From NCBI GenBank assembly GCA_003193925.1, contig PSPG01000004.1, positions 51,720 through 115,719 of the forward strand: a stretch of 64,000 nucleotides of DNA. The letters run 5' to 3'. The notes beneath the pieces were generated by a model that ran no database searches, had not been told where the DNA came from, and saw only the letters and a program-made list of their open reading frames with translations. The stretch comes from Candidatus Thalassarchaeum betae. Its GTDB lineage: Archaea > Thermoplasmatota > Poseidoniia > Poseidoniales > Thalassarchaeaceae. Shown piece by piece: positions 13,698 through 63,660 of the stretch. The translations under genes and the position numbers were made by a program. How positions within the stretch are numbered: the stretch's first letter is position 1; every line of letters begins with the position of its first letter.

Positions 13698-13710
13698 CGC
13701 GATGTTCTAA

Positions 13711-16002: not shown

Positions 16003-16017
16003 GTACCTAACTATTAG

Positions 16018-16090: not shown

Positions 16091-16564
16091 TAGAGAATTC
16101 GACCTAGGAGGGAGTTGCAAATGAAGCATTCTCTAGATGCAATTAACCGACAATCTTCGAAATTCTCCCATCACATCCGTAATTGGAACAGCTACCAGAC
16201 AAACGAGTTCGGCCATTGCTCATGACTATCTTCTTCGCATTCAATATACGGCAGTAGGTCTTGCACTTGAGGCAGAAACCCATTTCCTGGCCGTCCACGA
16301 ACGTGGATCTGTGATTTCGTATTCAATGCATCTCCGAGGGGGGATTCAAAGTATAATATTCAATGATATACTCAAATCGATGTACTACGACTCTGTTATC
16401 AACATTTTTCAGGATAAGTTTTCCGATAAGTGCTCTTATCGGTCACATGACACACGGTAAGATACACTGTCACGAGATAAACAGACTGGATTCGCTACGC
16501 AGATGTTGAAAAATTATCTTCATAGTACTTATTAACTGTAAAAATGAGAATAGGTTTGTAGTCA

Positions 16565-17848: not shown

Positions 17849-17897
17849 GAGCCGCGACAGCCATGATGCTTGAAAGGACTGTCTGCCTCGAAGGCAC

Positions 17898-22324: not shown

Positions 22325-22627
22325 ATGCAAAGTTCACTCGAACGCCTCAATCAGGATGGGATTCTGACTTCCAAAGCGGTTTCACAAGAGGTCCGGTTCC
22401 TGTCTGAGACACTGGAGACTCTACTGGACTCGGGTGAGATTTCCACTGATGCCTATCTCGACGCGGGTACCATTCAGGGGGGGCTGTCAGTCTTGGCAAA
22501 CTTGATTGCTCAGGGCGTATCCGCTGAAGAAGCTCGTATCCAACTCCAACAACTGAGAGTCAGGGCCGAGAACATCAACTCGAATTACCCTGAACTCGAT
22601 GGCAAGATCGAGGGAATTCGTCATTAG
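22325..22627 (+). CDS. Hypothetical 100-aa protein
   Basis: ORF with protein-like composition and no recognisable family. Confidence 0.35.
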   Translation: MQSSLERLNQDGILTSKAVSQEVRFLSETLETLLDSGEISTDAYLDAGTIQGGLSVLANLIAQGVSAEEARIQLQQLRVRAENINSNYPELDGKIEGIRH

Positions 22628-22684
22628 TATTACCCCAGTAATACTTAGCGAATACTTATCAATAACGTCACCGGCCGCATATGC

Positions 22685-22867
22685 GTGCCTAAGGTCAGTT
22701 TTGACATACCCAACGAATTGCTCGAAGACCTGCGCCTCCACGTCGGCGATGACAAGAAGTTCGTGTCGCTGGCCGACGCAGTTAGAACCGCTTGCAGGAA
22801 GCTCCTCGATCAACTGGATGCGATCGATGAGATGCATGGCAGAATTCGGAGGAAATCTGATGAGTGA
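22685..22867 (+). CDS. Small ribbon-helix-helix (CopG/Arc/MetJ-like) DNA-binding protein
   Basis: 60 aa. 'PKVSFDIPNELLEDLRLHV…FVSLADAVRTACRKLL' fits the RHH beta-alpha-alpha pattern. Its stop overlaps the folE start by 8 nt. Confidence 0.5.
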   Translation: MPKVSFDIPNELLEDLRLHVGDDKKFVSLADAVRTACRKLLDQLDAIDEMHGRIRRKSDE

Positions 22868-23447
22868 TGCTCCAAGCAGGGAACAGGCCGTTTCGGCCGT
22901 TGACACCCTGGTCAGGTACATCGAGTCTGCAAACGGTGAACTGAGGGAAGGGCTTGCTAGTACCCCGGAGAGAGTCATCGAGTCGTTCGATGAAATCTAC
23001 TCGGGTTATTCTGGCGATGCCAAATCGATACTCGATGCCACATTCAACTCCGAGGGCTATGATGGAATCGTCCTACTGAGGGACATCGAGTTCCATTCGG
23101 TTTGCGAACACCACCTGCTACCATTCACAGGCAAGGCCCACATAGCCTACATCCCAACAGACAGGATTGTCGGAATCAGTAAACTTGCACGGCTGCTCGA
23201 CTTGCATTCCAGCAAGTTGCAGAATCAGGAAAGGCTGACCAAGGGCATCGCGGATGACATCGAGTCGATACTGGCCCCCCTTGGATGCGCGGTGATACTC
23301 GAGGCTACCCATAATTGCATGCAATGCAGGGGAGTCTCTAAGCAGAATGCTGTGATGATTACCAGCGCGATCCGCGGTGCATTCTTTGACAAGCAAGAGG
23401 CTCGAGGTGAACTGCTGCAACTCATCAACATCCAGTCGGACAAGTGA
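22860..23447 (+). CDS. folE: GTP cyclohydrolase I (FolE)
   Basis: 'FHSVCEHHLLPFTGKAHIAYIP' is the zinc-binding CEHH motif region of GCH1. Start placed at the ATG at 22860, which has a GGAGG 7 nt upstream. Confidence 0.85.
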   Translation: MSDAPSREQAVSAVDTLVRYIESANGELREGLASTPERVIESFDEIYSGYSGDAKSILDATFNSEGYDGIVLLRDIEFHSVCEHHLLPFTGKAHIAYIPTDRIVGISKLARLLDLHSSKLQNQERLTKGIADDIESILAPLGCAVILEATHNCMQCRGVSKQNAVMITSAIRGAFFDKQEARGELLQLINIQSDK

Positions 23448-23451
23448 TTCG

Positions 23452-24081
23452 ATGGTACTACTGCCCACCGGTTCTGACCTCGAACAGGTCTTCCCGATAG
23501 TGGAGATCTTTCACAGCATACAGGGAGAGGGTCACAACACCGGGATGTCCTCGGTGTTCATCCGATTCGGTAGGTGCAACCTCAGGTGCCCTTGGTGCGA
23601 TACCGAGTTCGACGAGTGGGAGGACATGACGCTGGGCCAGATCATCAACGAGATCAGCAAGTTCGATTGCGACAGGATCATCCTGACCGGAGGCGAGCCG
23701 GCTCTGCAGGATCTACCAACCCTGTGCGGAGCCCTGGGGGGCATTGGCTACTACATCAGCATCGAGACAAACGGGACTGTCGCGCTGCCCAGCGGCATCA
23801 TCGACTGGATATGCGTCAGCCCGAAGGACCAGGAATACCCGGATGTGGCCATCAGGCAGAGGACCGGGAACGAGTTGAAGGTCGTTAACCTCGGTCAAGA
23901 CCTGTCTATGTACGACGACCTCAAAGGAGGCTTCGACCACCTATATCTGCAGCCCTGCTATGACGAGGGGCAAAGTGTGGAGTGGAACGGGCTCAACTTC
24001 CACGATACTTTCGAGCAGGTACGATCGAGGCCCGAGTGGAGGCTCTCGCTCCAGTCTCACAAATGGATGTGCGTGGAATGA
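23452..24081 (+). CDS. queE: 7-carboxy-7-deazaguanine synthase (QueE, radical SAM)
   Basis: 'VFIRFGRCNLRCPWCDT' is the QueE-type Cx14CxxC cluster motif. Start placed at the ATG at 23452, 4 nt after the folE stop. Confidence 0.8.
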   Translation: MVLLPTGSDLEQVFPIVEIFHSIQGEGHNTGMSSVFIRFGRCNLRCPWCDTEFDEWEDMTLGQIINEISKFDCDRIILTGGEPALQDLPTLCGALGGIGYYISIETNGTVALPSGIIDWICVSPKDQEYPDVAIRQRTGNELKVVNLGQDLSMYDDLKGGFDHLYLQPCYDEGQSVEWNGLNFHDTFEQVRSRPEWRLSLQSHKWMCVE

Positions 24082-24860
24082 GCAGGGTGGTAATGGCGTT
24101 CAGCGGAGGCATGGACTCGACAGCTCTTCTACTGAGGATGCTGGCAAGAAGGAGTGAAGTCACCTGCATCTCGTACGACTACGGGCAGAAGCACATATTG
24201 GAGTTGCAGAGGGCGGCTGCGAACATCGAATACCTACAATCCAAGGGTTACGAGGTCGAGCACCACGTTGCTGACCTATCCAGCGCCATGGCGCTGTTCG
24301 ACTCGGCCCTCACTGACTCTCAAATCTCCGTGCCTGAAGGCCATTACGAGGAAGAGCAGATGAAGCAGACCGTGGTGCCCAACAGAAATGCCATCTTCTC
24401 CTCGATCCTCTACGGCTACGCGCTCTCTGTCTCATCGAAGGAGGACGTGGATGTCTCCGTGGCTCTAGGGGTGCACTCCGGGGACCACGCAATCTACCCT
24501 GACTGCAGGCCGGAGTTCTACGATGCCCTGATGCAGGCTTTCAAGGCTGGAAACTGGGACTCTCATAGAGTGACGATGGATCTGCCATATGTGGATGGGG
24601 ACAAGGAGAGTATCCTCAGAGATGCGATGGTTTCGTGCGATAGTCTCGGAGTTGACTTCGACACCGTCTTCCGGAACACCAACACCTCTTACAGCCCGGA
24701 TCAATTGGGGCGCAGCTCGGGCAGAACTGGGGCCGATGTGGAGAGGATACTGGCATTCCATGCCATAGGCCGCAAAGACCCCGTCGAATATGTAGTGGAC
24801 TGGAGTACGGTGCTTGAGCGCGCGCTAGCCATAGAGAAGGAATACGAGGCGGCAATATGA
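24078..24860 (+). CDS. queC: 7-cyano-7-deazaguanine synthase (QueC)
   Basis: 'VVMAFSGGMDSTALL' is the PP-loop SGGxDS motif and a C-terminal zinc-binding cysteine region is present. ATGA start/stop overlap with queE. Confidence 0.85.
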   Translation: MSRVVMAFSGGMDSTALLLRMLARRSEVTCISYDYGQKHILELQRAAANIEYLQSKGYEVEHHVADLSSAMALFDSALTDSQISVPEGHYEEEQMKQTVVPNRNAIFSSILYGYALSVSSKEDVDVSVALGVHSGDHAIYPDCRPEFYDALMQAFKAGNWDSHRVTMDLPYVDGDKESILRDAMVSCDSLGVDFDTVFRNTNTSYSPDQLGRSSGRTGADVERILAFHAIGRKDPVEYVVDWSTVLERALAIEKEYEAAI

Positions 24861-27689: not shown

Positions 27690-28592
27690 GTGGTGACAGC
27701 ATTATTGCCACTATGTGGCAGGATCGAGTACAAGGGGGTTGCTACAAGAATTGAAAACTCCGTGGCCACTCGAGCGGTCATGAGAAAGTCCTTGTCCCGG
27801 AATCCCAACATGATGAGGACCATGATTGGAATCGGTCTGGTGCTGATACTCGTATTGTCGTATGCCGTCTACTCCAACACCCTGGACTCGGAATACTACG
27901 GGTACACCACTACTAATGAGGAGGTTGAGTTGGACATGCAGGAGACCGAGGAAGGGAGTGCTGAGTGGTACTCAACAACCATATCCGCAATCACTTGGAT
28001 CAATGTCTCAGTATCTGGGGCTCCTGAGGGCTCGTCCATCCAAGTTGAGGCATTTGGAACGGAATGGTACTATTCACCACTATTGGGCTCTCCCGGGGCT
28101 GAGAACTTTAACTGCAGGCATTCATTATCCGCAGACAGCGGACAAGTGTCAGAGTCATGCGAACTCGCGGTACTTCACGAGAAGATCTCGGAAGGTGGCG
28201 AGGACAGGATGTTGGGACTAGTACTGAACGAACTACCCATAGGCGGCCTTGGATACCTGCATAGCGACGATTCCACCTCGGCAGAGGTGCAGGCCCGGGA
28301 GTTGATAGAGAGGAGCGAGGTCATCGTCACGTGGAGAGTGAAGGTGCTTGAGGATGGAGAGCCTGTCGCTTCGGAAGGAGTCGAATTGAGTGTCAGCGTC
28401 GTGACTCACGAATTGGTTTCAGTCCACGAGTTCAAGCTAGACCCTGTTCAAGAATCGGTGTACAGTCTCGCTACATTGGTGGGTTGTTTCTCCCTGCTCC
28501 TCATCATCCCACTCACGGTTTACTTCTCAGTAGTATACAAGACCAAGAAAGACGAGCGCGTAAGGCTGGAGACGCCCGAAGTCAAAGGCTGA
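27690..28592 (+). CDS. Hypothetical membrane-anchored protein (N-terminal TM, acidic extracytoplasmic domain, C-terminal TM)
   Basis: 300-aa ORF with predicted TM segments near both ends and no recognised family. The true start may be the internal Met around 27780. Confidence 0.45.
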   Translation: MVTALLPLCGRIEYKGVATRIENSVATRAVMRKSLSRNPNMMRTMIGIGLVLILVLSYAVYSNTLDSEYYGYTTTNEEVELDMQETEEGSAEWYSTTISAITWINVSVSGAPEGSSIQVEAFGTEWYYSPLLGSPGAENFNCRHSLSADSGQVSESCELAVLHEKISEGGEDRMLGLVLNELPIGGLGYLHSDDSTSAEVQARELIERSEVIVTWRVKVLEDGEPVASEGVELSVSVVTHELVSVHEFKLDPVQESVYSLATLVGCFSLLLIIPLTVYFSVVYKTKKDERVRLETPEVKG

Positions 28593-29096
28593 TCACTCTT
28601 CTTCGGGATCCAACTCTAGTTTCTCATTCGGTGGCTCCAGAACTCCTGTCGGATCGAATCTAGCGGAGACGTTCCACTCATTGGATAGGGGGGACTGTCT
28701 GATGACAGCCAGTCCCAAGGAGTAGAATTTGGCTATCGAAGCACGGACCCTCTCCTCGACGGGTGCTATCCTCTCATGGAAAGTCGAATCCATCAGACTG
28801 CAGATCGTGGAGAAATCGTTGCTCCCATCCATCAACTCCCAAAGCATTGAGTTCATGTCATCCAACGGCCTCCTGAGCTCCTTCGGCCCCCTGAGAATAC
28901 TGGCCAAAATAGCTTCGAGGCCACTGAGTGTCTTGGGATGTCTGATAACGATCTGCTTACCGGTCACCCCCTTCACATCAGGGTGTGGACCGACTACCCC
29001 ACGCCGTCCCCACCACACCGGGACTCGTGTGGGAAAAACGTCGCCGGAGAAACGCATTAGAAGAACACCCAGAATACTAGTGTCACCATAGAGCAT
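28593..29096 (-). CDS. PqqD-like / RiPP-recognition-element (RRE)-like domain protein
   Basis: '…LDDMNSMLWELMDGSNDFSTICSLMDSTF…APVEERVRASIAKFYSLGLAV' fits the PqqD pattern LN.ta..IW.llDG..t..eI...l…y.v..e.a..dv..Fl..L...GL. No RiPP enzyme gene is adjacent. Confidence 0.4.
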   Translation of the reverse strand: MLYGDTSILGVLLMRFSGDVFPTRVPVWWGRRGVVGPHPDVKGVTGKQIVIRHPKTLSGLEAILASILRGPKELRRPLDDMNSMLWELMDGSNDFSTICSLMDSTFHERIAPVEERVRASIAKFYSLGLAVIRQSPLSNEWNVSARFDPTGVLEPPNEKLELDPEEE

Positions 29097-35273: not shown

Positions 35274-36188
35274 ATGTCCGGTGAGGGATTTCTCCACCCC
35301 CTAGCAGAGGTGTTCGTGGTACCATCTAGCATCAGCGTGGTAAAGGGAGCGGACGGCTTGGAGCACCTGAATCGGACCTTGACTGCCGACGTTTCAGGAT
35401 TGCGACTGCAAGGGAGGCAGGATGCACTGCTGTGCAATGCAAATGGCAGGATATTGGATCACCTGATTCTGTGCAACCTCGGAGAGCAGGTGATTCTGGT
35501 GGGGAACCATGGTACTGGCGACGAAACTCGTCAACAGTTGCTCCAAGGAGTGGCTTGGGACGAAGAAGTGACTGTCATGAACGCTGACGGAGCGATTGGG
35601 CACCTGAGGCTCCTAGGGAAGGCAGTCGACCGATGCCTAGTGGGATTGGGTATCGACCCGTCAGAAATCGATTCGCAATCTTGGACAGAATTCGGCAGTG
35701 CTCTGATATCTCGGACAGACGTCGGCGATTCAGCGATTACGGAGATCCTCGTCCCCTCAGTAGAGTTGGAATCACTGGTCGAATCACTGGTCGTCAACGG
35801 AGCAAAAACCATGGATTCAGCCAGATGGAGTGAGCTCCGCATCAGATTGGGCATTTTGGAACGCAGTGAGATGAATTCGTCCAACCTCCCCTTCGAACTC
35901 GGTCTGCACGAACTGATCGAACTTGACAAGGGATGCTACCCCGGACAGGAGATTCACGCTAGGATGGAAAGCAGAGGGAGAATCTCGAGGACGCTGGTGC
36001 GGCTTTTCTCCGATCTCCCCCTTCCCATAGGCAAGCACGTGTCCCCTAATGTTGGGAGGATCACTGTAACCTCATACGCCGAACACGAAGGAGGGGTCGT
36101 CGCCCTTGCCATCATACCCAATGAAGCAAGGGAATTGGAGGAACTGGTATTCGAAGATGGTTCCCTGGTGAAGGTGGAACTAATCTGA
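35274..36188 (+). CDS. YgfZ/GcvT-like folate-binding protein (Fe-S cluster assembly/repair factor)
   Basis: 'KGCYPGQE' is the YgfZ-family signature (KGC[YF]xGQE), within an aminomethyltransferase-like fold. It lies immediately downstream of the IscA-like gene. Confidence 0.7.
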   Translation: MSGEGFLHPLAEVFVVPSSISVVKGADGLEHLNRTLTADVSGLRLQGRQDALLCNANGRILDHLILCNLGEQVILVGNHGTGDETRQQLLQGVAWDEEVTVMNADGAIGHLRLLGKAVDRCLVGLGIDPSEIDSQSWTEFGSALISRTDVGDSAITEILVPSVELESLVESLVVNGAKTMDSARWSELRIRLGILERSEMNSSNLPFELGLHELIELDKGCYPGQEIHARMESRGRISRTLVRLFSDLPLPIGKHVSPNVGRITVTSYAEHEGGVVALAIIPNEARELEELVFEDGSLVKVELI

Positions 36189-37259
36189 AGTGTCATCGCT
36201 CTCAAACTCAAACACCTCCCCCCTCTCCAACCATTCTGACAGAGGCATCAGCGGGGAGATGCGAAGCGAGCCCAGGTTTCGAGTGAATAGGTACAAAGTC
36301 GGGTCGTAATACTCGACCATCTGGTTCTGGAACGCCCTGCGCACCGATGCGGCACGGGAGCGGAAGAAACCCAACTCCACTGTGACACCGATGATGGTGG
36401 CTGTATAGAGCACGAGAAGAACGCTGAGAGAGAATACCACCGGGTCCCCGAACAAGTCATCCGTGCGTAACTGGCTACCATACAGCAGTTGTCTGGATAG
36501 TAGGAACACGAGCCCGACACCGACCAACGGCCCCAACGCGTCTTCGACGAATGCGTCCATCGGAGTCAATCGTCTCGTGGTGGGATCTGCGAATACCAGT
36601 GCATTGGCGGTTGCTGCACGGACAACTGATGTGATTGAGACCAGTACGATGTATACGGCTCCACTGAGCAGGAGAATGCCTCTTGCGTCAAGGGGGAGAT
36701 ACAGTACGACGAGGTAGGCGAATAACCCCAGAAACACTGTGATAGGCAGCCTGTGTACAGAAATCAGTACGCGATCAAGCTCTTTGGCGCCATCGTCCAG
36801 TCTGGGGATGCCTATGATCTCCCATCTGGTGATGCCCTGGATTATCTTGGCGACCAGGGACAAGGCCCTCTTGTCAATCAATACCCACTCGATAGCCCTG
36901 AGTACGGGCATCAGGGGAATAGCGATAATCGCAGCGAAAAAACCGAGGACCGGCCAGACGATCAAACTCGGGAGCAGGATGAAGTGCTGCATCCTCAGAG
37001 GGTGCAGCAGATCGGATTCGATTCGAGCCTGCCGCTCTGGATCTATCAGGAACCTCCTCGCCTCGGCATCCAGTTCTGCTCTGTACCTCCTCAGCGGGAT
37101 GCCGGCGTCAAGCACCCTCCTGATCTTCTCTCTGTAGTGCTCGTGTTCCGGCTCGGTGCCAACCCACCAGCGCCAACCCAGAGACAGTGGCAAAGCTAGG
37201 AACAACGGCGATAGGAGTATCAATACTGAGGTGAGCAGCGCCTCAGGGGTTGCAACCAC
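36180..37259 (-). CDS. Hypothetical polytopic membrane protein
   Basis: 359 aa with multiple hydrophobic helices and no recognised family. Confidence 0.5.
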   Translation of the reverse strand: MVATPEALLTSVLILLSPLFLALPLSLGWRWWVGTEPEHEHYREKIRRVLDAGIPLRRYRAELDAEARRFLIDPERQARIESDLLHPLRMQHFILLPSLIVWPVLGFFAAIIAIPLMPVLRAIEWVLIDKRALSLVAKIIQGITRWEIIGIPRLDDGAKELDRVLISVHRLPITVFLGLFAYLVVLYLPLDARGILLLSGAVYIVLVSITSVVRAATANALVFADPTTRRLTPMDAFVEDALGPLVGVGLVFLLSRQLLYGSQLRTDDLFGDPVVFSLSVLLVLYTATIIGVTVELGFFRSRAASVRRAFQNQMVEYYDPTLYLFTRNLGSLRISPLMPLSEWLERGEVFEFESDDTSD

Positions 37260-42563: not shown

Positions 42564-45554
42564 TTGCGATTGCGAGGGGTTGAAGTCCCGTCTTCTTACA
42601 GATTGGATTTGAGCGGTGCCATGAGCGATAGCAAGGGCAAGGGTTTCGGCCCGAGAAACGTGGTACAACGGGCCAAGTCGGAGGCTGCCTCCAAAGTCGC
42701 TAGTGGAAAGAAAGCGATGGGGCAGATTGATGCTGATTTCGTCAAAGGAGCTGTCAGAAGGGCCCCCAACACCCTGCGCAGGGCCCTAGCGGACTCAACA
42801 GCGACTGGGATACTGACGAAAGTGCCTGTCGTGACGGTGGTGCTGTGCCTTCTTGTAACAGGCTTCTTCACCCTGCACTCGGGTATCTTTGACTGTCGAG
42901 AAGGCTTCGAGTACGAGTTCTGTAGCGAAGAGGCAGCATTGAACGTCAACGGAGACCTCGAGGTATACCTACCCCAAGGCTCCGATGTCAGCGTGATGAT
43001 AGCCGTTGTCCAGGAGGACTGGACGACCAATGTCATGGTGATCTACGTCGAGTCGGAGGACACGAATGTCACCACGATCAATATCCTGAATGAGATTGAT
43101 GCAGTCGAGAGGGAGTTGAACTTCGTGCGCAATGACGATGGAGTCAATGACAACATCATCTACGTCCTGTCAATTTCCACTGTGATCAAGGAAGTGAACT
43201 CAAGTGCAGGCAGAGTGGCCAAGGCATTCTTCTCGGGACTGGCTGAGGCCACGGGGAACGAAGACCTCTCCGAGCAGTTCAACGACACCATAGACGAGCA
43301 GGAGGACATCATCGGCAGTTACTCGATTCCCGAGGAGCAGGAGCGAGTCGACCGGATCCTCAGGGAGATGCCGCGGAACGCCCTAGACAAGCTGGTCAGG
43401 GATGTCGGCAAGGACCTGGACGGGGACGGGGACAAGGATGTCTTCCGCGTGAATTACTGGAACCGTGCAGTCATCATCATCGGGATCTCCGACAATCTGA
43501 CAGGGGTCGAAGATATCTCGGAGTTGATTGAGGAAACTCAGAATACCATCAACCGTATCGCAGAAGCCAACAACTGGACAGAAGACAACCTGACGATGAC
43601 CCTGACTGGGCCTGTTCCAATCACTAACGCAGTCACCGAGGAGTCGTTCAAACTGTTCTGGAAGGTGTTCCCCCTCGGCGTACTTGCCGTCGCCATCGGC
43701 CTGTTCCTCTTCCATTGTGACCTGCTGCAGACTGGTCGGATTAGATTCGTCCAGGGACTGAAGGTGGTCATTATCGCGGGGCTTCCAACCTTATGTTCGG
43801 TATGGATCACACTGGGAATCATCGGTTTCACTGACTATGAGGTCACGATGACGGTCATCATCGTAGGGCCGATCATACTTGCCCTAGGGGTTTCCTATGG
43901 GCTCCACATTACCAATCGGTACGCCGAGTCAAAGGGGACGCCCAGAGAGAAGATGGCCATAGCTCTCAACTCGACGGGGCGAGCCGTCTTCCTCTCAGCA
44001 GTCACGACTATCATCGGCTTCATCTCACTGACCTTTACTCCAATGAAACCGATACAGACCGTGGGATGGTCTCTGGCCGGGGGCATAGTCGTGGTCTACA
44101 TCATGACGATGGTCATGGTTCCCAATCTGACGATGATGCTCGACCTGAAGAAACCGTCTCACCCGGCCCCGAAGCTGTTCGTGCAAGCCGTGGGTGTCCC
44201 TTTGAAATGGACTCGCCTCACCTTGGTCCTATTCCTTGCAGCGATGCTGATGTCTGCAGGGATCTCCAGAGACAACGTCGAGGAGAACATCAACCTGCTC
44301 GAGATGGCGCCTCAGAACGTGGAGTCCGTTCAGAAGATGGCGGTATACTCGGATGAGTTCGAAGCAGGCCAGCCCGGATTCCTCCTCGTGGAAGGGAATC
44401 TGGCGGCCAGTCCAAACTTATTCTCGCCGGTGTTAGACGACCCGTATGAGAATCTGAAGGGAATCGAAGCTCTGGAACAGAACTGCAATCGAGTGAACAG
44501 AACCACTGCAGTTTCCATAGTCTTCCTGATGAAAGCCGTGGCCGTAGGCGTGAACGTCTCGGGGCAACCGATAGCCGACCAAGTGGATCAGTGGCCGCTG
44601 CCCGATCAGATCAAGGACGTTGTGGGCTTCATCTTCGGCAGGGAAGTTGCCGGGAACGGCTCGTTCTGGGAGACTCTGGCGGCCTTGGACGGCTCTCCCT
44701 CCGGCGATGACCAAGCCCACAACTTCCTGATTTACGTATTCTACAACAGCATGACTGACGAGATGCGTGAATTATTCATCTCATCCAACTACAGGCGCAG
44801 CCTCATCTATATCGATATGCCATTCATGGATGTCCAGGACACCAATGAGGCTGTCAACGGCAAGGGTGGCATCAACTACTGGGCCGAGAACACCCCTGGC
44901 GTGGAGTCGTCGGCTCTGGTCGGGGTCGCATCGGTGACTATCGAGGTCAACAATCTGATTGTGGACTCCCAATGGACCTCGTTGGGATTCGCTCTGCTGT
45001 TCTCGGTGCTCACCCTCGGCTTGGTCTTCCGAGACCTCAGGTTCGCCTTATTGACGACGATACCAGTCGGCTTCACCGTGGGGATGCAATGGCTGGCGAT
45101 GGATGCCCTCGGAGTCCCCCTATCACTAGTCACGGTGATGGTCGGATCGATACTGGTCGGCGTCGGAATCGACTTCTCCATTCACATCGCCAATCGCGTC
45201 AAAGAGCAAGGTGGGACGATGGAAGCCGTTAGGGTGGCTTGTGCCAGCACCGGAATGAGCCTGTTTGAGGCGACGGTGGTAACAGCTGCCGGCCTAACTT
45301 GCGCTTACCGGATTCCCATAGTAGCAATCCACCCATTCGTGACCGTCATCATCATCCTACTGATTGTCGCGGCATTGTCTGCGCTTCTCCTGTTGCCGGC
45401 CATCTTCGCACTGCTGATTAAGTCCGGCATCGGATTGACCGGTGGCGTAGAGACTATGGTCAAGACCGCAGGATTACGCAGGGCAATCGCTCGGGACGAG
45501 GCTGACGTGATAGATGCCTCGCTGCTCATCGGCTCGTCCGACGATGCGTGGTGA
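42564..45554 (+). CDS. MMPL/RND-superfamily membrane transporter
   Basis: 996 aa with two 6-TM bundles, each preceded by a large extracytoplasmic domain; this is the RND/MMPL exporter topology. Confidence 0.7.
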   Translation: MRLRGVEVPSSYRLDLSGAMSDSKGKGFGPRNVVQRAKSEAASKVASGKKAMGQIDADFVKGAVRRAPNTLRRALADSTATGILTKVPVVTVVLCLLVTGFFTLHSGIFDCREGFEYEFCSEEAALNVNGDLEVYLPQGSDVSVMIAVVQEDWTTNVMVIYVESEDTNVTTINILNEIDAVERELNFVRNDDGVNDNIIYVLSISTVIKEVNSSAGRVAKAFFSGLAEATGNEDLSEQFNDTIDEQEDIIGSYSIPEEQERVDRILREMPRNALDKLVRDVGKDLDGDGDKDVFRVNYWNRAVIIIGISDNLTGVEDISELIEETQNTINRIAEANNWTEDNLTMTLTGPVPITNAVTEESFKLFWKVFPLGVLAVAIGLFLFHCDLLQTGRIRFVQGLKVVIIAGLPTLCSVWITLGIIGFTDYEVTMTVIIVGPIILALGVSYGLHITNRYAESKGTPREKMAIALNSTGRAVFLSAVTTIIGFISLTFTPMKPIQTVGWSLAGGIVVVYIMTMVMVPNLTMMLDLKKPSHPAPKLFVQAVGVPLKWTRLTLVLFLAAMLMSAGISRDNVEENINLLEMAPQNVESVQKMAVYSDEFEAGQPGFLLVEGNLAASPNLFSPVLDDPYENLKGIEALEQNCNRVNRTTAVSIVFLMKAVAVGVNVSGQPIADQVDQWPLPDQIKDVVGFIFGREVAGNGSFWETLAALDGSPSGDDQAHNFLIYVFYNSMTDEMRELFISSNYRRSLIYIDMPFMDVQDTNEAVNGKGGINYWAENTPGVESSALVGVASVTIEVNNLIVDSQWTSLGFALLFSVLTLGLVFRDLRFALLTTIPVGFTVGMQWLAMDALGVPLSLVTVMVGSILVGVGIDFSIHIANRVKEQGGTMEAVRVACASTGMSLFEATVVTAAGLTCAYRIPIVAIHPFVTVIIILLIVAALSALLLLPAIFALLIKSGIGLTGGVETMVKTAGLRRAIARDEADVIDASLLIGSSDDAW

Positions 45555-45592
45555 TGCATCAGATTCATTCGCTTGACTCCAGTGGAGCGCGC

Positions 45593-46066
45593 ATGACCCG
45601 GTACTGGCTGATGAAGAGCGAGCCACACGTCTATCCGTGGGAGCTGCTGGTTGAGGACGGTTCGACTCACTGGGACGGGGTGAGGAACTACCAAGCGAGG
45701 AACCTGATGAGGGATGAGATGAAGATTGGGGACCTCGCTCTGTTTTATCACTCCAACTGCAAGCCACCACATGTCGCTGGAGTCGTTAGGGTCTGCAGAG
45801 AGGGCTACCCCGACCACACGGCCCAAGACCCTGAATCGAACTACTTCGATCCCAAAGCCACCCCGGAGAACCCCCGTTGGATTATGGTTGACATAGAACC
45901 AGTGACGGAACTCGATACCGTCGAGCTGTCCGAGTTGAGGGCGAATCCAAAACTCGAAGGGATGCCGTTGCTCAGAAGGGGCCAGAGACTCTCAGTCCAG
46001 CCTGTTCCCAAAGAGCATTTCGAGATCGTGTGCCGGATGGGTGGCCTTGTGGGAATGCCCGGTTAG
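45593..46066 (+). CDS. EVE (PUA-like) domain protein
   Basis: 'MTRYWLMKSEPHVYPWELL…WDGVRNYQARNLMRDEMKIGDLALFYHS' is a typical EVE-domain N-terminus. The ORF opens at 45548; the start is probably the Met at 45593. Confidence 0.7.
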   Translation: MTRYWLMKSEPHVYPWELLVEDGSTHWDGVRNYQARNLMRDEMKIGDLALFYHSNCKPPHVAGVVRVCREGYPDHTAQDPESNYFDPKATPENPRWIMVDIEPVTELDTVELSELRANPKLEGMPLLRRGQRLSVQPVPKEHFEIVCRMGGLVGMPG

Positions 46067-46074
46067 GTGGGCGC

Positions 46075-46370
46075 GTCCTCGGTGGACGCTCGTCACCAGA
46101 GGTGCAAGTTCACCGATCTCCTCCGCCCCGCTATCCCAAGGCATCCAGCATCCCCGGTCGGGCTGCTCGCTTCCGCGCCTGACCTGGTTCCCGGGCGTGA
46201 GACGGTCCTCGCTTCCCTCCGGAAGCGGCTTCCGCCAACCTGGATCTCTTGGGGGCGAGGCATCGACGTCAACCGGTGGAACACCAATGGCTCGTCTGCG
46301 CCGCCCTCGGACTTCGGGTCTCCATTTTCGACGATTTGAGAACAACAGAGCACGTCAACTCTCCCCCTAG
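46075..46370 (-). ncRNA. ffs: Signal recognition particle RNA (7S/SRP RNA)
   Basis: On the minus strand, 'CCAGGUCAGGCGCGGAAGCGAGCAGCC' (plus ~46161..46187) matches the universally conserved SRP RNA helix-8 motif. It has a GGAA tetraloop flanked by the GUCAGG/AGCAGC asymmetric loop; compare E. coli 4.5S CCAGGUCAGGUCCGGAAGGAAGCAGCC. The gene sits in a GC-rich, highly self-complementary 368-bp gap between convergent protein genes. End coordinates are approximate. Confidence 0.6.
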
Positions 46371-46434
46371 CCCGATTATGGCGGGAAATCGCCCCATATC
46401 AACGAATCCCTGACCCGAAATGTGGGATAAGGCG

Positions 46435-46818
46435 CTATTCCGAGTATTTCGAAGGGCAACCTGTCTGAATCTCATGTGCCTTAAGCAGCCAACCTTCACT
46501 GCTGTCCATCAGGTTTCCCTTGACAGCTATTGTATGGCCCTCTTCGAAACCGTCGGGGATGGCAACCCCAGAGAAGTCAATGTGGAGCGTGTGCGACGTC
46601 CCTGCGAGGTCAAACGAGGATGAGGCGGAATCGAGCGAGCCGGCGACTACTTGACCACGCAGATGCACATTGCCCTCATGTGACTGAGGCGAGGCCATGA
46701 CCTCGTCTACAGAATACTGGGTCTCGGGCTTGACGCTAAGGAACATCAGCGCAACAAGCCCAGCTAGGGCGAGGCCGACTACGATCAGACGCGAAGCCCG
46801 GGTCCCCGCCATGCTCAC
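46435..46818 (-). CDS. ccmE: Cytochrome c maturation heme chaperone CcmE, archaeal-type (CxxxY instead of HxxxY)
   Basis: 127 aa. An N-terminal membrane anchor, an OB-fold region 'VHLRGQVVAGSL…FDL…VKGNL' and the C-terminal 'GCPSKY' correspond to CcmE; the heme-binding His is replaced by Cys as in archaeal-type CcmE. Confidence 0.65.
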   Translation of the reverse strand: MSMAGTRASRLIVVGLALAGLVALMFLSVKPETQYSVDEVMASPQSHEGNVHLRGQVVAGSLDSASSSFDLAGTSHTLHIDFSGVAIPDGFEEGHTIAVKGNLMDSSEGWLLKAHEIQTGCPSKYSE

Positions 46819-47991: not shown

Positions 47992-48014
47992 GCGTTGCGC
48001 AGCATCGCGGGTTC

Positions 48015-48425
48015 ATGAGCGCATCAAAGCAGGGTGCTGCTATCAGCGAACTCGCCCGCAGGACCCTCAGGTCCGGAGGGGTTACGGTTCGTACAAAGGA
48101 TGCCGGACGGCTCAGTGTCGAGTCCCTCTCGGTTTTGATTTCTGATCTCGCGCCGTCTGTCATATCTGGGGCTGATGCCGTAGAGTCGGATGAAGAGGGC
48201 ATCGAAATCGTGCTCGATGGCGAACCTGGAGGACTCATCGGTGGCCCCGAGCCGCGTACCCTGGAATGTGTTTGGATACCGGGGGTTCCAGATGACCTCT
48301 GGAGGAAGTACAGAAATTCCGTCTTGGATCTGGCTGCCGCTGGATACCCCGGCTGCATTGGTTGCGCCGGTCCGGCTGCTGAATTGCCATGGGATGAAGA
48401 GGGCTCGAGAGTGGTTCTGAGATAA
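48015..48425 (+). CDS. Hypothetical acidic protein
   Basis: The plus-strand ORF has protein-like composition. The overlapping antisense ORF 47894..48358 is Ser/Pro-rich, which is typical of a non-coding frame. The start is uncertain because the ORF opens inside pyrD. Confidence 0.3.
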   Translation: MSASKQGAAISELARRTLRSGGVTVRTKDAGRLSVESLSVLISDLAPSVISGADAVESDEEGIEIVLDGEPGGLIGGPEPRTLECVWIPGVPDDLWRKYRNSVLDLAAAGYPGCIGCAGPAAELPWDEEGSRVVLR

Positions 48426-48565
48426 CCCGCCTCGCGCGCCCCCCCGCTCGCGCACGCGTTGGAGAGTAATCGACCTGCTCATGTTTATACAGGGTCCATC
48501 CGGGCACACCAAAACGAGGTCAGCTAGTCTTTCTCGACAGACAGTGCTGGCAAAGGGGTGGAACT

Positions 48566-52088: not shown

Positions 52089-53171
52089 GTGCACAAGTCA
52101 GTTCAGCGAATCAGATATCCCCCCTTCGAGTACTCACACATGAATGCAGGAGGGGTGCCGTTGGTCGAAGTGGTGATGGAATCCGATAATCCTCCTCCGC
52201 CATCATTCAGGATCGGCATGGACGAAGATTGGATGGTGGAATGGAGGCGTTGCAAGGATGATGACCCGGAATGGCCGGTCATACAATCCGATGTCTCCAC
52301 TGACCCATTTCCCTTCCTGATGAGTACGAGGAATGGTTGGTACATCGAACCCGACCCATTGCACTCCCTAGCAAGGAGGCTGATCCCTCCGACGGCGTCC
52401 ATCCTGATCCTCACGTTGTTGATTCACACGATGGAGCCAGGTCTTGTGAATATCGGGGTGCTCTCGGAGGCGATTGCAGGATCCTACAGAATCGGCCCTT
52501 TGGACTACCCCAAGCTACTGGTAGTGGCCTTACCGATATTCCTGCTGCCCATCGTTTCGAGGATGGTTGCCAACCTGCGTGACATACGAAGGCAGAACGC
52601 GTACATCGCATCGCCTCTGGACTCTCCGGAAATCTCTCTGGCGAACGAGGGAAATGGAATCAAGATCGTCAGGCTGGTAATGCCGTTAGAGGTGATGGCT
52701 CGCCGAGCTCGGATTCAGGTCGGCATCGCCGTTCCCGAGAGGAGCAAGGTGCTAGAGGCGCTGTCGAGGGACGAGGGCGGGCAGCCAGCACCGGGAATGT
52801 CCACACAACTGCCTGAGCGCAGAATCACCACTGGGGAAGAACTCGGTACCGGGGTCGGCGAGGCAACTCCAATGCCTATCGCCCATCCTAGGGTGCTGCT
52901 GCTAGAGCCGATGAGGGTCCGAGAGGCTGGCGAGTGGGTCGATTTCAAGGGTGGCGAGACCAGCTATTACCTCAAAGGTCCGGAGGACTTGTGGCCCGGC
53001 TCAATCTACTCAGCTGTAATAGCAGTTCACTGGGAGCTCGTGATCGAAGCGATTAGGGACGATGGGACGAAGATGAAGTGGGTGAGGCCGCTGAAGATGC
53101 CTCCACGAGAGGGGCTGGAGCATATCCCGACGTTGCCCGTAAGGAGCGGTAGGACCGAACTGTCGACTTGA
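52089..53171 (+). CDS. Hypothetical protein with a central pair of TM helices
   Basis: 360-aa ORF starting 5 nt after the GGR stop. No family recognised. Confidence 0.45.
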   Translation: MHKSVQRIRYPPFEYSHMNAGGVPLVEVVMESDNPPPPSFRIGMDEDWMVEWRRCKDDDPEWPVIQSDVSTDPFPFLMSTRNGWYIEPDPLHSLARRLIPPTASILILTLLIHTMEPGLVNIGVLSEAIAGSYRIGPLDYPKLLVVALPIFLLPIVSRMVANLRDIRRQNAYIASPLDSPEISLANEGNGIKIVRLVMPLEVMARRARIQVGIAVPERSKVLEALSRDEGGQPAPGMSTQLPERRITTGEELGTGVGEATPMPIAHPRVLLLEPMRVREAGEWVDFKGGETSYYLKGPEDLWPGSIYSAVIAVHWELVIEAIRDDGTKMKWVRPLKMPPREGLEHIPTLPVRSGRTELST

Positions 53172-54359: not shown

Positions 54360-55773
54360 TGAGTGCTTCTATTTCATCAATTGTCTTCGGACAATCCGAG
54401 GTCAGCACTACTGGACCGCCCTCGGTGATGAGTACGTCATCCTCTATACGCACCCCTATTCCGGAGTACCTCTCGGGAATCTCGACGTCCGTCCTCCAAC
54501 TGCCGAAGTATAATCCCGGCTCGACGGTTAGGACCATGCCGGGCCCGAGGTCGCGCCCGGGCCCATCATCGCCTTGTCGGCCACCTCCGACATCGTGGAC
54601 ATCAAGTCCCAGCAAGTGCCCCGTACCGTGCATGAAGTAGTTCCTGTAGGGTCCGTCGAAGTCCTCCCCCAGAGCATCCTCTAGTGAGTAGTCTAGGATG
54701 CCGAGGTCAATCAATCCCTGAGCGAGTACGTTAGAAGTCGCATGGTGCATCGCGCTCCACGGTGAGCCTGCTTGGCATGCCTCAATTCCAGCCATTTGCG
54801 CCCTGAGGACGAGTTCGTAAATCTCTCGCTGTGCATCACTGAACCGCCCGTTCACCGGCCAGGTTCTCGTAATGTCGGATGCATATCCCTCGACCTCTGA
54901 TCCGGCATCGACAAGGACGAGATCGCCGCCGGCGATAACAGCATTATTGGCATTGTAGTGGAGGATTGTGGCGTTATCACCGCCGCCAACTATTGTTGGG
55001 TAACTCCAACGGCTCTTGCTCGCGGTGAAATGTCTCTCGATGACGGCTTGTACCTGCCACTCTCCAATATCAGCATAAGCCGCTCGCATCGTCGCAACAT
55101 GGGCCGCAGAGGCGATGTCTGCCGACTCCTGCATCAACTGGATCTCTCGATCGGACTTGCGTACCCGCATCTCATCGAGTATCGAGGATGGGTCAGAAAG
55201 GCTCGTCGGGCCGATGTACTTGGTGTTGCTGTCACGCGACTTGGAGTTCACTGCGCTGTTCACCATCTCATCCAATATCGGATTGAGGCCTGGGATTAGG
55301 TGAATCTGCTTGCAAGCCTCGAAGTGCTCTGCTACCGTTTTCTCCAGATCTTCCAGAGAATGAGCCTCATCGATGGGCCACCCGGAGGCAGCGCCCTCTG
55401 TGCCAACCCTTCGACCCTCCCATATCTCGGTCTTGGTGTCTCGAGGTTGGACGAATAGCGAGGTCGTCCACGCGCCTGAGTCGTAATGAGACATCAGAAC
55501 GGCTCCGGGCTCATTCCACCCACACAGATAGAGCATGTACGAACTGGCACGAAACGGGTAATGGACGTCATTGGAGCGATTCGCGTGGGGATTGGTGGGA
55601 ATCAGCACCAAGCTGTCGGACGGAATCTGCCCTAGGAATTCAGACTGGCGCCCGCGATACTCGGCCTCGGAGAATGCAAGCTCAGCCATACGTCTCGCCG
55701 GGCTGTCGACTAGAGGCCCGTTCTTAGGGGTGTGGGAAGTCGAAGACGTCAGTTTTCGTTGCCGGACTTCCAT
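54343..55773 (-). CDS. pepP: Xaa-Pro aminopeptidase (M24B family)
   Basis: 'HGTGHLLGLDVHDVGG' and the upstream metal-ligand residues form the pita-bread fold. An N-terminal creatinase-like domain is present. Confidence 0.85.
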   Translation of the reverse strand: MEVRQRKLTSSTSHTPKNGPLVDSPARRMAELAFSEAEYRGRQSEFLGQIPSDSLVLIPTNPHANRSNDVHYPFRASSYMLYLCGWNEPGAVLMSHYDSGAWTTSLFVQPRDTKTEIWEGRRVGTEGAASGWPIDEAHSLEDLEKTVAEHFEACKQIHLIPGLNPILDEMVNSAVNSKSRDSNTKYIGPTSLSDPSSILDEMRVRKSDREIQLMQESADIASAAHVATMRAAYADIGEWQVQAVIERHFTASKSRWSYPTIVGGGDNATILHYNANNAVIAGGDLVLVDAGSEVEGYASDITRTWPVNGRFSDAQREIYELVLRAQMAGIEACQAGSPWSAMHHATSNVLAQGLIDLGILDYSLEDALGEDFDGPYRNYFMHGTGHLLGLDVHDVGGGRQGDDGPGRDLGPGMVLTVEPGLYFGSWRTDVEIPERYSGIGVRIEDDVLITEGGPVVLTSDCPKTIDEIEALIGSDR

Positions 55774-57311
55774 TTCGGAATGGACGCGGAATCGTCCGAA
55801 GAACGGTACCTCAGCAATATGGCCGAGACCATGAAGATGGCTGAAATCGCAAGGGCGATTAGCGGGTAGGGCAGGGGCTCGCTCACGTCGGGGTTGACCA
55901 ATTGTACAGAGACGGTGCCGTACTCATCATCATCGTCGATGACGTCCAAAGTGAGAATTAGTTCGTCTCCGGCGCCCGAAGGCCAGGAAAGAGTTCTCTG
56001 GCAGCCCTCATACATTGGAGCGTAATCAATCTTCCAAACGCACCTCAACCCGGCTTGATCGTTAGCTGAGTCGACCGAGGCGGAAGCGTCCAAAGCCCAT
56101 TCGCCGCCTGGGCTCAACTTGATGCTGTCACCATCTGAGACAGGACTGCCATCCACATACATCTTGGCCGTGGGTATGACGTTCTCCACAGTGAATGTCT
56201 TGACTGATGTGCTTGAAACCCCACCGGCGTCCATCACGCGCAGAGTCAGAGTGTATTCGCCGGAGGTCTCGCTGCCCATAGAGTAAGTGCCGAGGCCGTC
56301 CCCCATGACGATGTCGAGCGGTGTCGAACCAGTGTGTGAGGGCCTTCTCAGCACCCACATGTAATGCATGTCCTCCCTGCCCCATACCGGGTCGTTGGAG
56401 GCACTGCCGTCGAACAACAGATCGCCACTGCCCTCCAGCACGCTGTCTGGCCCCGCCAGTGTGATTGCCGGAGCAAGATTGTTGACCCGGATGGGCACGC
56501 AGGTCTGAGCGAAGGTAACCCCGGAGGGATCGTAGTTCTCGGCGTAGAAGGAGTGCCATCCATCATAGAGCCCCGAAATGTCGATCCTGTTCGAGAAAGA
56601 GCCATCTGGAATAATCACCAATAGATGTGAACTGAAATCGGAATCGGCCTCGATCATGCACACATCTGCCGCGTTGGAAGCCGACTTCGCGAAGAATCGG
56701 AGCTCCGGAGAAGTCCATACCATAGGGTGCGAACTCCAGCCTGAAGCGGTGAGTGAGTTGGAAACCCAATCCCCCGAGGCCGGAGAGTGGAGCATGATTG
56801 CTGACTTAGCCGTATCTCCGAGGAACAAAACTTGTCGGGCCTGCGATGTCTCCCCGGAAGCGGACTCCACTGTGACTGTGAGGTAGCAGGTGCATGGGGA
56901 GTACTCTGCCACATCGAGTTCCAGCGACCAGATCCAGATGGGCCTTGAACCCGATGAGTCGGCTTCCTCCAAAGTCGTCGACAGATCCCCGCTGCCGAGC
57001 TCTGCCTCCTCGCCAATGCTCCATGTCACGTGAGGGGGCCTCTCTTCGTCCTCGACGAAACCTGTGATTACAGTAGTTTCGTTCGTGGTGAAGCCATTCT
57101 CGAAATCGAATCCGATGAGAGGAACATCGTCGGAATCCTCCGCGCTGACAGGGGTAAGAGTGGGGGACCACGCCGCTATAAGCAGCAAGACGACGAACAA
57201 CCTAGGGGACTTCACAGCGTATGGCCGGACCAATTCCGTAATGAATCTCATGCCTAAATGATGATTGTTCCAATCATCTGTCTGAAATCTGTAATTGCCA
57301 CGCCAGCTCAT
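55749..57311 (-). CDS. Hypothetical cell-surface protein (signal peptide, beta-rich PKD/Ig-like repeats, C-terminal TM anchor)
   Basis: 520 aa with an N-terminal hydrophobic signal, repetitive beta-strand-like segments and a C-terminal 'PLIALAISAIFMVSAILL' anchor followed by a charged tail. Confidence 0.5.
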   Translation of the reverse strand: MSWRGNYRFQTDDWNNHHLGMRFITELVRPYAVKSPRLFVVLLLIAAWSPTLTPVSAEDSDDVPLIGFDFENGFTTNETTVITGFVEDEERPPHVTWSIGEEAELGSGDLSTTLEEADSSGSRPIWIWSLELDVAEYSPCTCYLTVTVESASGETSQARQVLFLGDTAKSAIMLHSPASGDWVSNSLTASGWSSHPMVWTSPELRFFAKSASNAADVCMIEADSDFSSHLLVIIPDGSFSNRIDISGLYDGWHSFYAENYDPSGVTFAQTCVPIRVNNLAPAITLAGPDSVLEGSGDLLFDGSASNDPVWGREDMHYMWVLRRPSHTGSTPLDIVMGDGLGTYSMGSETSGEYTLTLRVMDAGGVSSTSVKTFTVENVIPTAKMYVDGSPVSDGDSIKLSPGGEWALDASASVDSANDQAGLRCVWKIDYAPMYEGCQRTLSWPSGAGDELILTLDVIDDDDEYGTVSVQLVNPDVSEPLPYPLIALAISAIFMVSAILLRYRSSDDSASIPKWKSGNEN

Positions 57312-61424: not shown

Positions 61425-62642
61425 TCAATCCAATGCCGACAAGATTGGCTGATGCATCAAATCGCGGATGGAAGAGGCACGCCATGCCTCGTCAGAAGAT
61501 TCTGGAGCGTCCAGCCAGCCCAATCCGCCATATTCGCAGCCCATGGAATCAAGCGAGGACCTGAGAGATGGAGGGAGGGGAGTCGCGTCGCATCCTGCGA
61601 TGATAACATCCGAGAGTCTCTGATGCAGGACCAAGTCGGCCAACGCATCCTGCTCCGTCGGCTCTAGACAGAGGGCCGAGCACCTGGGCGCGGCCACGCC
61701 CTCGTGAACGGTGCCTGATGGAAATCGTGGGCAAGCACCCTCGCAACCGCAGTCGATGAAGGCGACCCTGTGCACAGAGCCATCCGAGGCGATCATGTCC
61801 TCGACATCGAACCTCCTGCGACCGAGCGGGGCTTCTGGCAAGGTGCGGGAGATTGCGTCAGCCACCGCCATGGATATGGCGGCGACTAGCAGCCTCAGGC
61901 CCTCGTACTCGACTGGGAGAGTGAGCAGCAAGAGTCCTCCGAAGATCAGCAGTATACGCACCCTGAGCCTCGCCTCACCGTGCTCCACGAGACCCAGCAA
62001 GCGAGCCATAGACAGAGAGAGGGTGGCGAGCATGACGGTTACGAGTAGCCAGGAGAACCCCAGAGCCAGTCTGAACAGAGCGCTGGCGTCGTATCTGGCT
62101 CCAACCCCCTCCAGAGCGTCAGCAGCCTCAGTTGCCTCGATGAACAGGGGAAGCAGGTAACCCCATGTCGCTAGGATCACCGCCGGGACCATGACCATAC
62201 TCAGGCAAAGCAGGACTGAGAGCCAAGTGCGCTCACGGGGAAGCAGCCCTGGACGAGCGAATCGCTGCAACTGGAAAGACAGTACCGGCATCACAGTTAG
62301 GAGGGCGAGTAAGATGGCCAAGGACCAGCGTATCTCCAACCACTCGAAGGGAGAGTACACAGACAGGTCGAGCGAGGCGGCGCCCAATGGAAGCGAGTTC
62401 AGCCACGCTCGCATCAGCGAGTCGGTGCCATACGCCCATGCGATTGCTGCGATGGCAATCAGTATGGCGGATTTGCGTATTGAGCGATGCAACTCAGACA
62501 GATGCTCGGACAAGGGCCTACGCCTGTCGGAGGATACTGCGAGTGTCATATCAGAGGATGTCCTTGACCTGTGGCTCAGCTCTGGCTGCCAACACCGTCC
62601 TGTAGACGCCGTAAGCCGCCCAGACGCTGATGAAGAAGGCAC
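61425..62642 (-). CDS. tatC: Sec-independent translocase TatC with a ~150-aa cysteine-rich C-terminal cytoplasmic extension
   Basis: 'PLSEHLSELHRSIRKSAILIAIAAIAWAY' is the TatC N-terminal signature and six TM helices follow. The C-terminal tail contains 'IDCGCEGACPRFPSG…CSALC…AGCDATP…MGCEYGG'. The start is probably the Met at 62549. Confidence 0.7.
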   Translation of the reverse strand: MPSSSASGRLTASTGRCWQPELSHRSRTSSDMTLAVSSDRRRPLSEHLSELHRSIRKSAILIAIAAIAWAYGTDSLMRAWLNSLPLGAASLDLSVYSPFEWLEIRWSLAILLALLTVMPVLSFQLQRFARPGLLPRERTWLSVLLCLSMVMVPAVILATWGYLLPLFIEATEAADALEGVGARYDASALFRLALGFSWLLVTVMLATLSLSMARLLGLVEHGEARLRVRILLIFGGLLLLTLPVEYEGLRLLVAAISMAVADAISRTLPEAPLGRRRFDVEDMIASDGSVHRVAFIDCGCEGACPRFPSGTVHEGVAAPRCSALCLEPTEQDALADLVLHQRLSDVIIAGCDATPLPPSLRSSLDSMGCEYGGLGWLDAPESSDEAWRASSIRDLMHQPILSALD

Positions 62643-63660
62643 AACCGATTGCGAACCCGGTAATGTCGGAGGTCCTAGTCCCCTCCTCGACGATAGTGGC
62701 CGGAGGGAATGCTATGGAAACATCGGAGGCCATCCAGCGGACCCCGATGGCGAATGCTGCAATGCAGAGCAAGCCTCTTCGGATGGCCTGGGGATAAGCA
62801 AGTTCGTTTGCCAGGAACTCAGGACCGTCGTCGTAGCGTCGGTCGAGGATCTCCTTCTGCACCACAGCTCCGACTATCAGAGCCACAAGACTGGTCCAGT
62901 ATAGCAGGTTGCCCTGCTCGAATATCCTCAGTGACAGCGCCGCTTGGCGGTCTGCCTCCTTCTGGGCGTCGGACTCCTCGATCAAGAACAGGGTGTCGTA
63001 GTCACCTACGGAGATGGTCCTAGTTTCGAGTGTTGCCGCATCGTCACCGGAAACTATGGATCCGGGCGGGCTGACAGTGAATGAGAGTAGGTTCCAGTAG
63101 TCGTTCTCGTCAGGCACCCCGGAGCCGTCAACTGAGTTGCCTGCCAACCAAAAGTTAACTCCGCCGACATCTTCAGCGGGCGCGGTCCAGTTCAGGAACC
63201 AGATGCCATCGGAGTCGATGCCGGACTGCGATATGTCATCAAGGGCATCATCTACCTCGCGAATGTCCTGATCATTGGCCCAAGTAAAGACCCCCATGCC
63301 CTCCGAAGAGAGAAGGAAACCTGCCTTTGTGTTGCCACTGCCGCCCGAAAGCGTCAGCGAGTCTGCAACGGTGATGGTGTACTGATAAGTCTCGTCGAGC
63401 CCATACATCACAGGGATGCCGGTGATCATTACCACCGATCTGTCCGAAGGGGCGCCGTTGTTGTGACAGGTGCAACCATACTTGACAGTCGGATCTCCGT
63501 TGTTGTTCTCGACAGGCGGTCCACCGGACATTGCCATGACGGGCAGGGCTAGCAATCCCAGCAGCACCAGGCAGATGGCCGCTTTATCCACAATCGACCG
63601 CATCATGTCACCCGTACCTCTGTCAGATGCCGGAGTCTCATAACCGTTGCTCGGTCGCAT
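62551..63660 (-). CDS. Hypothetical secreted protein with C-terminal TM helices
   Basis: 369 aa. An N-terminal signal-like hydrophobic segment is followed by a beta-rich extracytoplasmic domain containing 'KYGCTCHNNG' and then 2-3 TM helices. It lies directly upstream of tatC on the same strand. Confidence 0.5.
   Translation of the reverse strand: MRPSNGYETPASDRGTGDMMRSIVDKAAICLVLLGLLALPVMAMSGGPPVENNNGDPTVKYGCTCHNNGAPSDRSVVMITGIPVMYGLDETYQYTITVADSLTLSGGSGNTKAGFLLSSEGMGVFTWANDQDIREVDDALDDISQSGIDSDGIWFLNWTAPAEDVGGVNFWLAGNSVDGSGVPDENDYWNLLSFTVSPPGSIVSGDDAATLETRTISVGDYDTLFLIEESDAQKEADRQAALSLRIFEQGNLLYWTSLVALIVGAVVQKEILDRRYDDGPEFLANELAYPQAIRRGLLCIAAFAIGVRWMASDVSIAFPPATIVEEGTRTSDITGFAIGCAFFISVWAAYGVYRTVLAARAEPQVKDIL

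Follow-up and report, generated by a model that had tools for sequence, protein, structure and literature searches.

SRP RNA is a housekeeping RNA found universally. The closest described counterparts of the RNA reported here are the archaeal members (Rfam RF01857), such as the 7S RNAs of Archaeoglobus fulgidus and Methanocaldococcus jannaschii. Like it, these are about 300 nt long with a terminal helix 1, and they carry Alu helices 2-4 with a loop-loop pairing and a UGUNR turn, a long helix 5, a helix 6 with a GNAR loop, and a helix 8 with a GGAA tetraloop and SRP54-binding loops, with no helix 7. The definition of archaeal SRP RNA given in a review matches the features of our RNA (PMC2905702). 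SRP RNAs of the Thermoplasmatales, which belong to the same phylum (Thermoplasmatota), share this archaeal architecture with helices 6 and 8, and the four sequences reviewed for that group depart from GNAR, their helix 6 loop reading AAAG (PMC2905702). Compared with the bacterial families RF01854 and RF00169, our RNA has both a covarying helix 6 and an Alu domain, and the archaeal model outscores theirs. The large, Bacillus-type bacterial SRP RNA (RF01854) shares the Alu domain, helix 1, helix 5, and helix 8 and is not known to have a helix 6. The E. coli 4.5S RNA (RF00169), at about 114 nt, lacks both the Alu domain and helix 6, and its helix 8 core (ACCAGGUCAGG...GGAA...AGCAGCC) is nearly identical to that of our RNA. 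We know of no cultured member of the Poseidoniales, and a literature search on SRP RNA in this group found nothing relevant.

The locus lies in a window of 64 kb, by which we mean the whole stretch of DNA analyzed. An EVE-domain ORF (45548..46066, plus strand; PF01878, E 2e-57) and a CcmE ORF (46435..46818, minus strand; PF03100, E 2e-12) converge on an intergenic gap of 368 bp (46067..46434), which we assign, with a probability of roughly 0.97, to the minus-strand SRP (7S) RNA gene of an archaeon of the Poseidoniales (marine group II, MGIIb; Thalassarchaeaceae). The extent of this gap had been given exactly in an earlier note on this DNA, and its account of a GC-rich region carrying only short overlapping ORFs is likewise accurate: the ORFs measure 50-117 aa and occupy both strands, and the G+C content of the SRP RNA stretch is 64%, whereas 2-kb windows taken elsewhere along the 64 kb give 0.50-0.59. 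The surrounding gene context is archaeal and includes genes for a primase small subunit, a proteasome-activating ATPase, ribosomal protein S19e, and a tRNA intron endonuclease. No SRP54, SRP19, or FtsY gene was found among the 52 window ORFs scanned against Pfam across the 64 kb.

A covariance-model search with the Rfam SRP models, the check that the earlier note had proposed, returns RF01857 on the minus strand with 123.3 bits (E 1.5e-27) against a gathering score of 96.5 bits. The match spans model positions 1-317 of 317 without truncation and is unchanged at permissive thresholds. Within the SRP clan (CL00003), RF01857 scores best and the other models, the bacterial ones included, score lower; no second or weaker SRP-like copy was found in the 64-kb window, even at E <= 0.1. 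When the 132 model pairs are mapped onto the window sequence, 94 are canonical, 34 are non-canonical, and 4 involve deletions, so that 34 of the 128 scorable pairs are non-canonical. Many of these, however, are invariant tandem G.A pairs or fall in conserved internal loops, and they are no argument against the fit of the model. Together with covariation in 57 homologues, this match bears out the proposal of an SRP RNA gene on the minus strand, and nothing among the evidence examined contradicts the assignment. Recognized above threshold by the standard model, the feature is an ordinary representative of a curated RNA family that is already known.

With the EVE protein as query, we collected 80 species-representative loci, all of them from the Poseidoniales/marine group II, the best match (85% identical) being from Candidatus Thalassarchaeum betae. 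Searching these loci with the window RNA as nhmmer query places an SRP RNA homologue downstream of EVE, on the minus strand as in the window, in 65 of the 80; of these, 56 are complete, and the remaining 9 are truncated where the contig ends. The homologues are 76-96% identical to the window RNA, and all 17 relatives tested pass the RF01857 gathering score, at 110-145 bits. In about 11 loci whose 4-kb flank is complete, EVE has no SRP RNA beside it, so that linkage of the two genes is frequent without being universal. Among the 56 complete loci, 35 have the RNA abutting EVE, 0-74 nt away from where the protein match ends, and the other 21 have 0.88-1.15 kb inserted between the two. In one relative locus, L057, this insert is a 287-aa ORF on the plus strand (L057 4476..5339), and inserts are also seen in 20 other loci, for example L005, L002, and L055. 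The gene order MMPL, EVE, SRP RNA, CcmE, and dihydroorotate dehydrogenase (DHODH) recurs in L057. The features below are described on an alignment of 57 sequences (A1; 313 columns) in which the window row is ungapped, the window coordinate being 46378 minus the column number:

46065..46377, minus strand: full extent of the RF01857 match, from the covariance-model search
46068..46373, minus strand: conserved core of 306 nt, from GGGC to GCCCA, from A1 (57 sequences)
46392..46403, minus strand: conserved upstream block gTTGATATGggg, at the same distance in all 57 loci
46370..46373, minus strand: helix 1, 5' strand GGGC, 4 pairs, invariant in 57 of 57
46069..46072, minus strand: helix 1, 3' strand GCCC, pairing with GGGC, invariant in 57 of 57
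46316..46367, minus strand: small (Alu) domain, from the RF01857 match and compensatory changes
Columns 11-13/60-62, minus strand: helix 2, compensatory change at 12:61
Columns 14-20/25-31, minus strand: helix 3, loop UGAC, compensatory change at 18:27
46347..46343 (A1 columns 31-35), minus strand: UGUNR turn, UGUUG, between helices 3 and 4
Columns 37-40/56-59, minus strand: helix 4, 15-nt loop, compensatory changes at 37:59 and 39:57
46239..46312 (columns 66-139), minus strand: helix 5, 5' strand, from covariation
46075..46150 (columns 228-303), minus strand: helix 5, 3' strand, from covariation, including the segment of a local hairpin
46201..46236 (columns 142-157/162-177), minus strand: helix 6, 11 of 18 pairs with compensatory changes
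46220..46217, minus strand: helix 6 tetraloop GGAG (GNAR)
46153..46195 (columns 183-203/208-225), minus strand: helix 8, SRP54-binding domain, from the model match and loop conservation
46174..46171, minus strand: helix 8 tetraloop GGAA, in 57 of 57
46181..46178 and 46167..46164, minus strand: helix 8 symmetric loop, CAGG (56 of 57) and AGCA (57 of 57)
One step further from the tetraloop than CAGG/AGCA: helix 8 asymmetric loop, AACCA and CGA

Covariation was counted in A1 on the Rfam-derived structure, with controls in which the 3' partners were slid by 1-3 columns. Paired cells amount to 73.9%, against 33-42% in the slid controls; 46 pairs show changes on both sides (compensatory), against 16-22; and the covariation score is 0.193, against 0.05-0.07. 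For four of the five measures, no shuffle out of 500 comes up to the observed value; for the fifth, the count of further pair types, a single one does. An independent consensus from RNAalifold recovers helices 1, 4, 5, 6, and 8 and contains 81 pairs, of which 33 show compensatory changes. Helices 2-6 and 8, which the earlier note had suggested looking for, are all maintained by compensatory substitutions across the 57 sequences; helix 1 is invariant, so covariation there is uninformative either way. The claim that the gap is highly self-complementary is weaker than it had been put, the effect being only marginal in energy: the minimum free energy comes to -138.9 kcal/mol, with a z-score of -1.67 and a stability equaled by 4 of 100 shuffles, and the predicted fold differs in part from the conserved one, the Rfam-derived structure limited to its 94 canonical model pairs coming to -98.3 kcal/mol. 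Thermodynamic folding as sole proof was accordingly set aside as not decisive, and the evidence beyond chance comes from the covariance model and the covariation.

The pairing of the 5' and 3' ends in helix 1 is conserved over 4 bp in the Poseidoniales, compared with 9 bp in the model, whose outer 5 pairs are mostly unpaired in these sequences, and with about 7 in A. fulgidus (PMC2905702). In the small domain, the loops of helices 3 and 4 can pair with one another (U21-G25 with C45-G49), as they do in 100% of cells, against 0-68% when slid; this pairing is retained in all 57 sequences, with changes on one side only, and its central pair is A-U in the window RNA rather than the G-C of the Rfam archaeal consensus. 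A stretch at 46353..46338 on the minus strand, GUGCUCUGUUGUUCUC, had been likened to the 5' part of small SRP RNAs, whereas the RF01857 alignment puts it in the Alu domain, where it provides one strand each of helix 3 (3' side) and helix 4 (5' side), together with the UGUNR turn between them. The strict UGUNR motif occurs in just 6 of the 57 sequences. The window RNA is one of these; 44 of the 57 Poseidoniales sequences have UAU in place of the archaeal UGU, a lineage-wide deviation of the Alu-domain U-turn motif in Poseidoniales SRP RNAs. Deviations from UGUNR occur in several archaeal groups (PMC2905702).

The long helix 5 contains three invariant tandem G.A/A.G motifs (columns 70-71/298-299, 85-86/284-285, and 108-109/258-259) where the RF01857 model would lead one to expect Watson-Crick pairs, and helices 5-8 of the covariation table carry 27 pairs changed on both sides. 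The 5e hinge motif of archaeal SRP RNAs consists of four pairs that a 3-nt loop interrupts, with two symmetric G-C pairs. At the position given to it by the model, a 3-nt loop, AUA (columns 244-246), lies between a C-G and a G-C pair with an extra C (column 124) opposite, and the 123:247 pair at this position is broken in 15 relatives.

Helix 6 is the best-covarying helix. In archaeal SRP RNAs its GNAR tetraloop is the SRP19 site, with an adenosine in contact with the loop of helix 8, where the tetraloop is of the GRRA type, usually GGAA. The helix 6 loop is GGAG in 36 sequences, GAAG in 13, and GUAG in 8, so that the window RNA and all 56 relatives keep G-N-A-G, in contrast to the AAAG of the Thermoplasmatales. 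About 5 nt separate the end of helix 6 (column 177) from the start of helix 8 (column 183), and helix 7 is absent. The motif on which the SRP RNA proposal had first been based, CCAGGUCAGG-CGC-GGAA-GCG-AGCAGCC, occupies 46187..46161 of the minus strand; in degenerate form (GGNCAGGNNNGGAANNNAGCANCC) it occurs once in the 64-kb window and in none of 100 shuffles. CAGG/AGCA and AACCA/CGA are conserved in 55-57 of the 57 sequences, and the stem pairs of helix 8 are kept. In one respect the initial description of this domain needs correcting: it had called CAGG/AGCA the asymmetric loop, but in the standard description of helix 8, based on the E. coli 4.5S-Ffh structure reported by Batey et al. in 2000, this loop is the symmetric one, and AACCA/CGA is the asymmetric loop.

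The ends of the gene are marked by a change in conservation. Columns 5-8 (GGGC) and 306-310 (GCCCA) of A1 are invariant, whereas columns 1-4 and 311-313 vary, leaving 4 nt before the core and 3 nt after it without conservation, and the mature RNA is likely to be 46068..46373. Upstream, a block (gTTcATAgGtGa) keeps the same spacing to the RNA, with no gaps, in every one of the 57 loci, amid upstream sequence that is otherwise unconserved. It includes a putative TATA box, TTGATATG, at 46402..46395 (minus strand), centered about 25-26 nt upstream of the conserved G 46373, as would be expected for a TATA box in archaea. We infer that the block is a putative archaeal promoter, from which transcription would start about 25 nt beyond the TATA-like box, in the vicinity of G 46373. 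A bacterial promoter scan gave one sigma-70-like site (TTGATA-16-CATAAT, 46402..46375); this site, whose first hexamer coincides with the conserved TATA-like box, was rejected as a candidate, the bacterial model not being applicable to an archaeon.

At the other end, the EVE stop codon (TAG, 46064..46066, plus strand) sits 1 nt away from the RNA's conserved 3' terminus (GCCCA, 46072..46068, minus strand), and the EVE and SRP RNA genes leave no room for terminators of their own. No run of at least 4 T follows the RNA within 113 nt downstream in the window; the first such run, 113 nt downstream, lies inside the EVE coding region in antisense, and the position of oligo-T after the RNA is inconsistent among relatives. 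Because no oligo-T terminator follows the RNA, its 3' end at about 46068 would probably arise by trimming back to helix 1. T-rich tracts directly follow the RNA in several of the loci that have an insert between it and EVE, for example L057, L005, and L055. A scan for bacterial terminators returned one terminator-like site, on the plus strand and inside the SRP RNA gene.

Among other explanations of the locus, the one that survives best, though it is highly improbable, is that the window holds a decayed or redundant second copy, a pseudogene, of an SRP RNA gene that functions elsewhere in the genome. The SRP RNA gene is normally single copy; the search for SRP RNAs covered 64 kb of that genome, and the roughly 11 related species without an SRP RNA beside EVE indicate that the gene can sit elsewhere. 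Yet every diagnostic loop of the window RNA is intact, its score of 123.3 bits is within the range of its relatives, and a conserved promoter-like block precedes it; moreover, 65 of 80 species share the locus, and its substitutions are compensatory rather than random.

Far less credible still is a structured spacer that acts as a bidirectional terminator for EVE and ccmE and resembles SRP RNA by chance. The region is G+C-rich, it separates convergent genes, and a hairpin adjoins the EVE stop codon, GCGUCC-ACCGA-GGACGC, in which the earlier note had seen a possible terminal helix or shared terminator. The sequence is indeed present (46089..46073), but the conserved pairing is that of helix 5: both strands of the hairpin pair instead with the helix 5 5' strand, and changes at columns 300 and 301 are compensated at columns 69 and 68 (helix 5) and not at 294 and 293 (hairpin). 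The outer pairs of the hairpin fail in 18 and 29 of the 57 sequences, its inner pairs go uncompensated when the 3' strand changes, and no T-run follows it on either strand. These counts, favoring helix 5, rule out the local hairpin as terminal helix or terminator, and an E value of 1.5e-27 over 317 model positions is not a matter of chance.

Equally negligible is the prospect that one of the overlapping ORFs, which reach 86-117 aa on both strands (e.g. 45992..46345, minus strand, 117 aa, or 46041..46370, plus strand, 109 aa), encodes a small protein, since long spurious ORFs are expected at 64% G+C, no frame on either strand is open across the 57 homologues (0-2 stop-free sequences per frame), and substitution entropy is flat over the codon phases (0.396, 0.424, and 0.424); with no conserved open frame and no codon periodicity, the coding reading was rejected.

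Returning to the SRP RNA gene itself, its tail-to-tail abutment with EVE invites the question of whether the arrangement is functional and not mere compaction, which we consider very unlikely. Antisense transcription from EVE might be needed to form the 3' end of the SRP RNA, or the SRP RNA might be a target of the EVE protein, whose PUA-like family reads modified bases in nucleic acids. The evidence for such a role is the linkage of the two genes; an insert separates them in 21 of 56 species, and in about 11 species they are unlinked.

Several further features of the window may be recorded here. The CcmE homologue (46435..46818, minus strand) ends in ...IQTGCPSKYSE, a CxxxY motif in place of the classical CcmE HxxxY, a variant described for archaeal System I cytochrome c maturation; no other ccm gene is adjacent, its neighbor being the dihydroorotate dehydrogenase gene. 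Between the latter and a topoisomerase gene, a stretch of about 570 bp (47992..48565) holds three mutually overlapping ORFs of 154-165 aa on both strands, none with a Pfam match. Nine long ORFs in the window (167-520 aa) match no Pfam family at E <= 1e-5; long ORFs of this kind lie at 2636..4220, 18974..19738, 27690..29096, 36180..37259, 52089..53171, 55749..57311, and 62551..63660. A cluster at 22599..24860 of GTP cyclohydrolase I, a radical-SAM protein, and QueC looks like a set for 7-deazaguanine (archaeosine precursor) biosynthesis. A histidine-utilization gene set occupies 10006..17929, interrupted by an AlaX-like editing-domain ORF and a tRNA-Val(GAC) gene (16017..16090, minus strand):

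10006..11686: formiminotransferase and cyclodeaminase
11688..13697: urocanase
13711..15270: histidine ammonia-lyase
16565..17929, minus strand: amidohydrolase

By homology with archaeal SRPs, the RNA from this locus would scaffold a ribonucleoprotein in which SRP54 binds helix 8 and SRP19 bridges the tetraloops of helices 6 and 8 (PMC2905702). SRP54 would capture hydrophobic signal sequences at the ribosome exit and then dock with FtsY in a GTP-controlled cycle, passing the nascent chain to the membrane translocon (PMC2905702). The long helix 5, with its putative hinge, would allow the particle to stretch between the exit tunnel and the elongation-factor site, the place of the Alu domain (PMC2905702).

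Beyond correct annotation the importance of this gene is limited; Rfam finds the SRP RNA above threshold here and in every related genome tested. The assignment does account for the 368-bp gap, within which the short ORFs should not be called genes, and it defines, for the Poseidoniales, a candidate promoter box as well as the likely ends of the gene, near 46373 and 46068.
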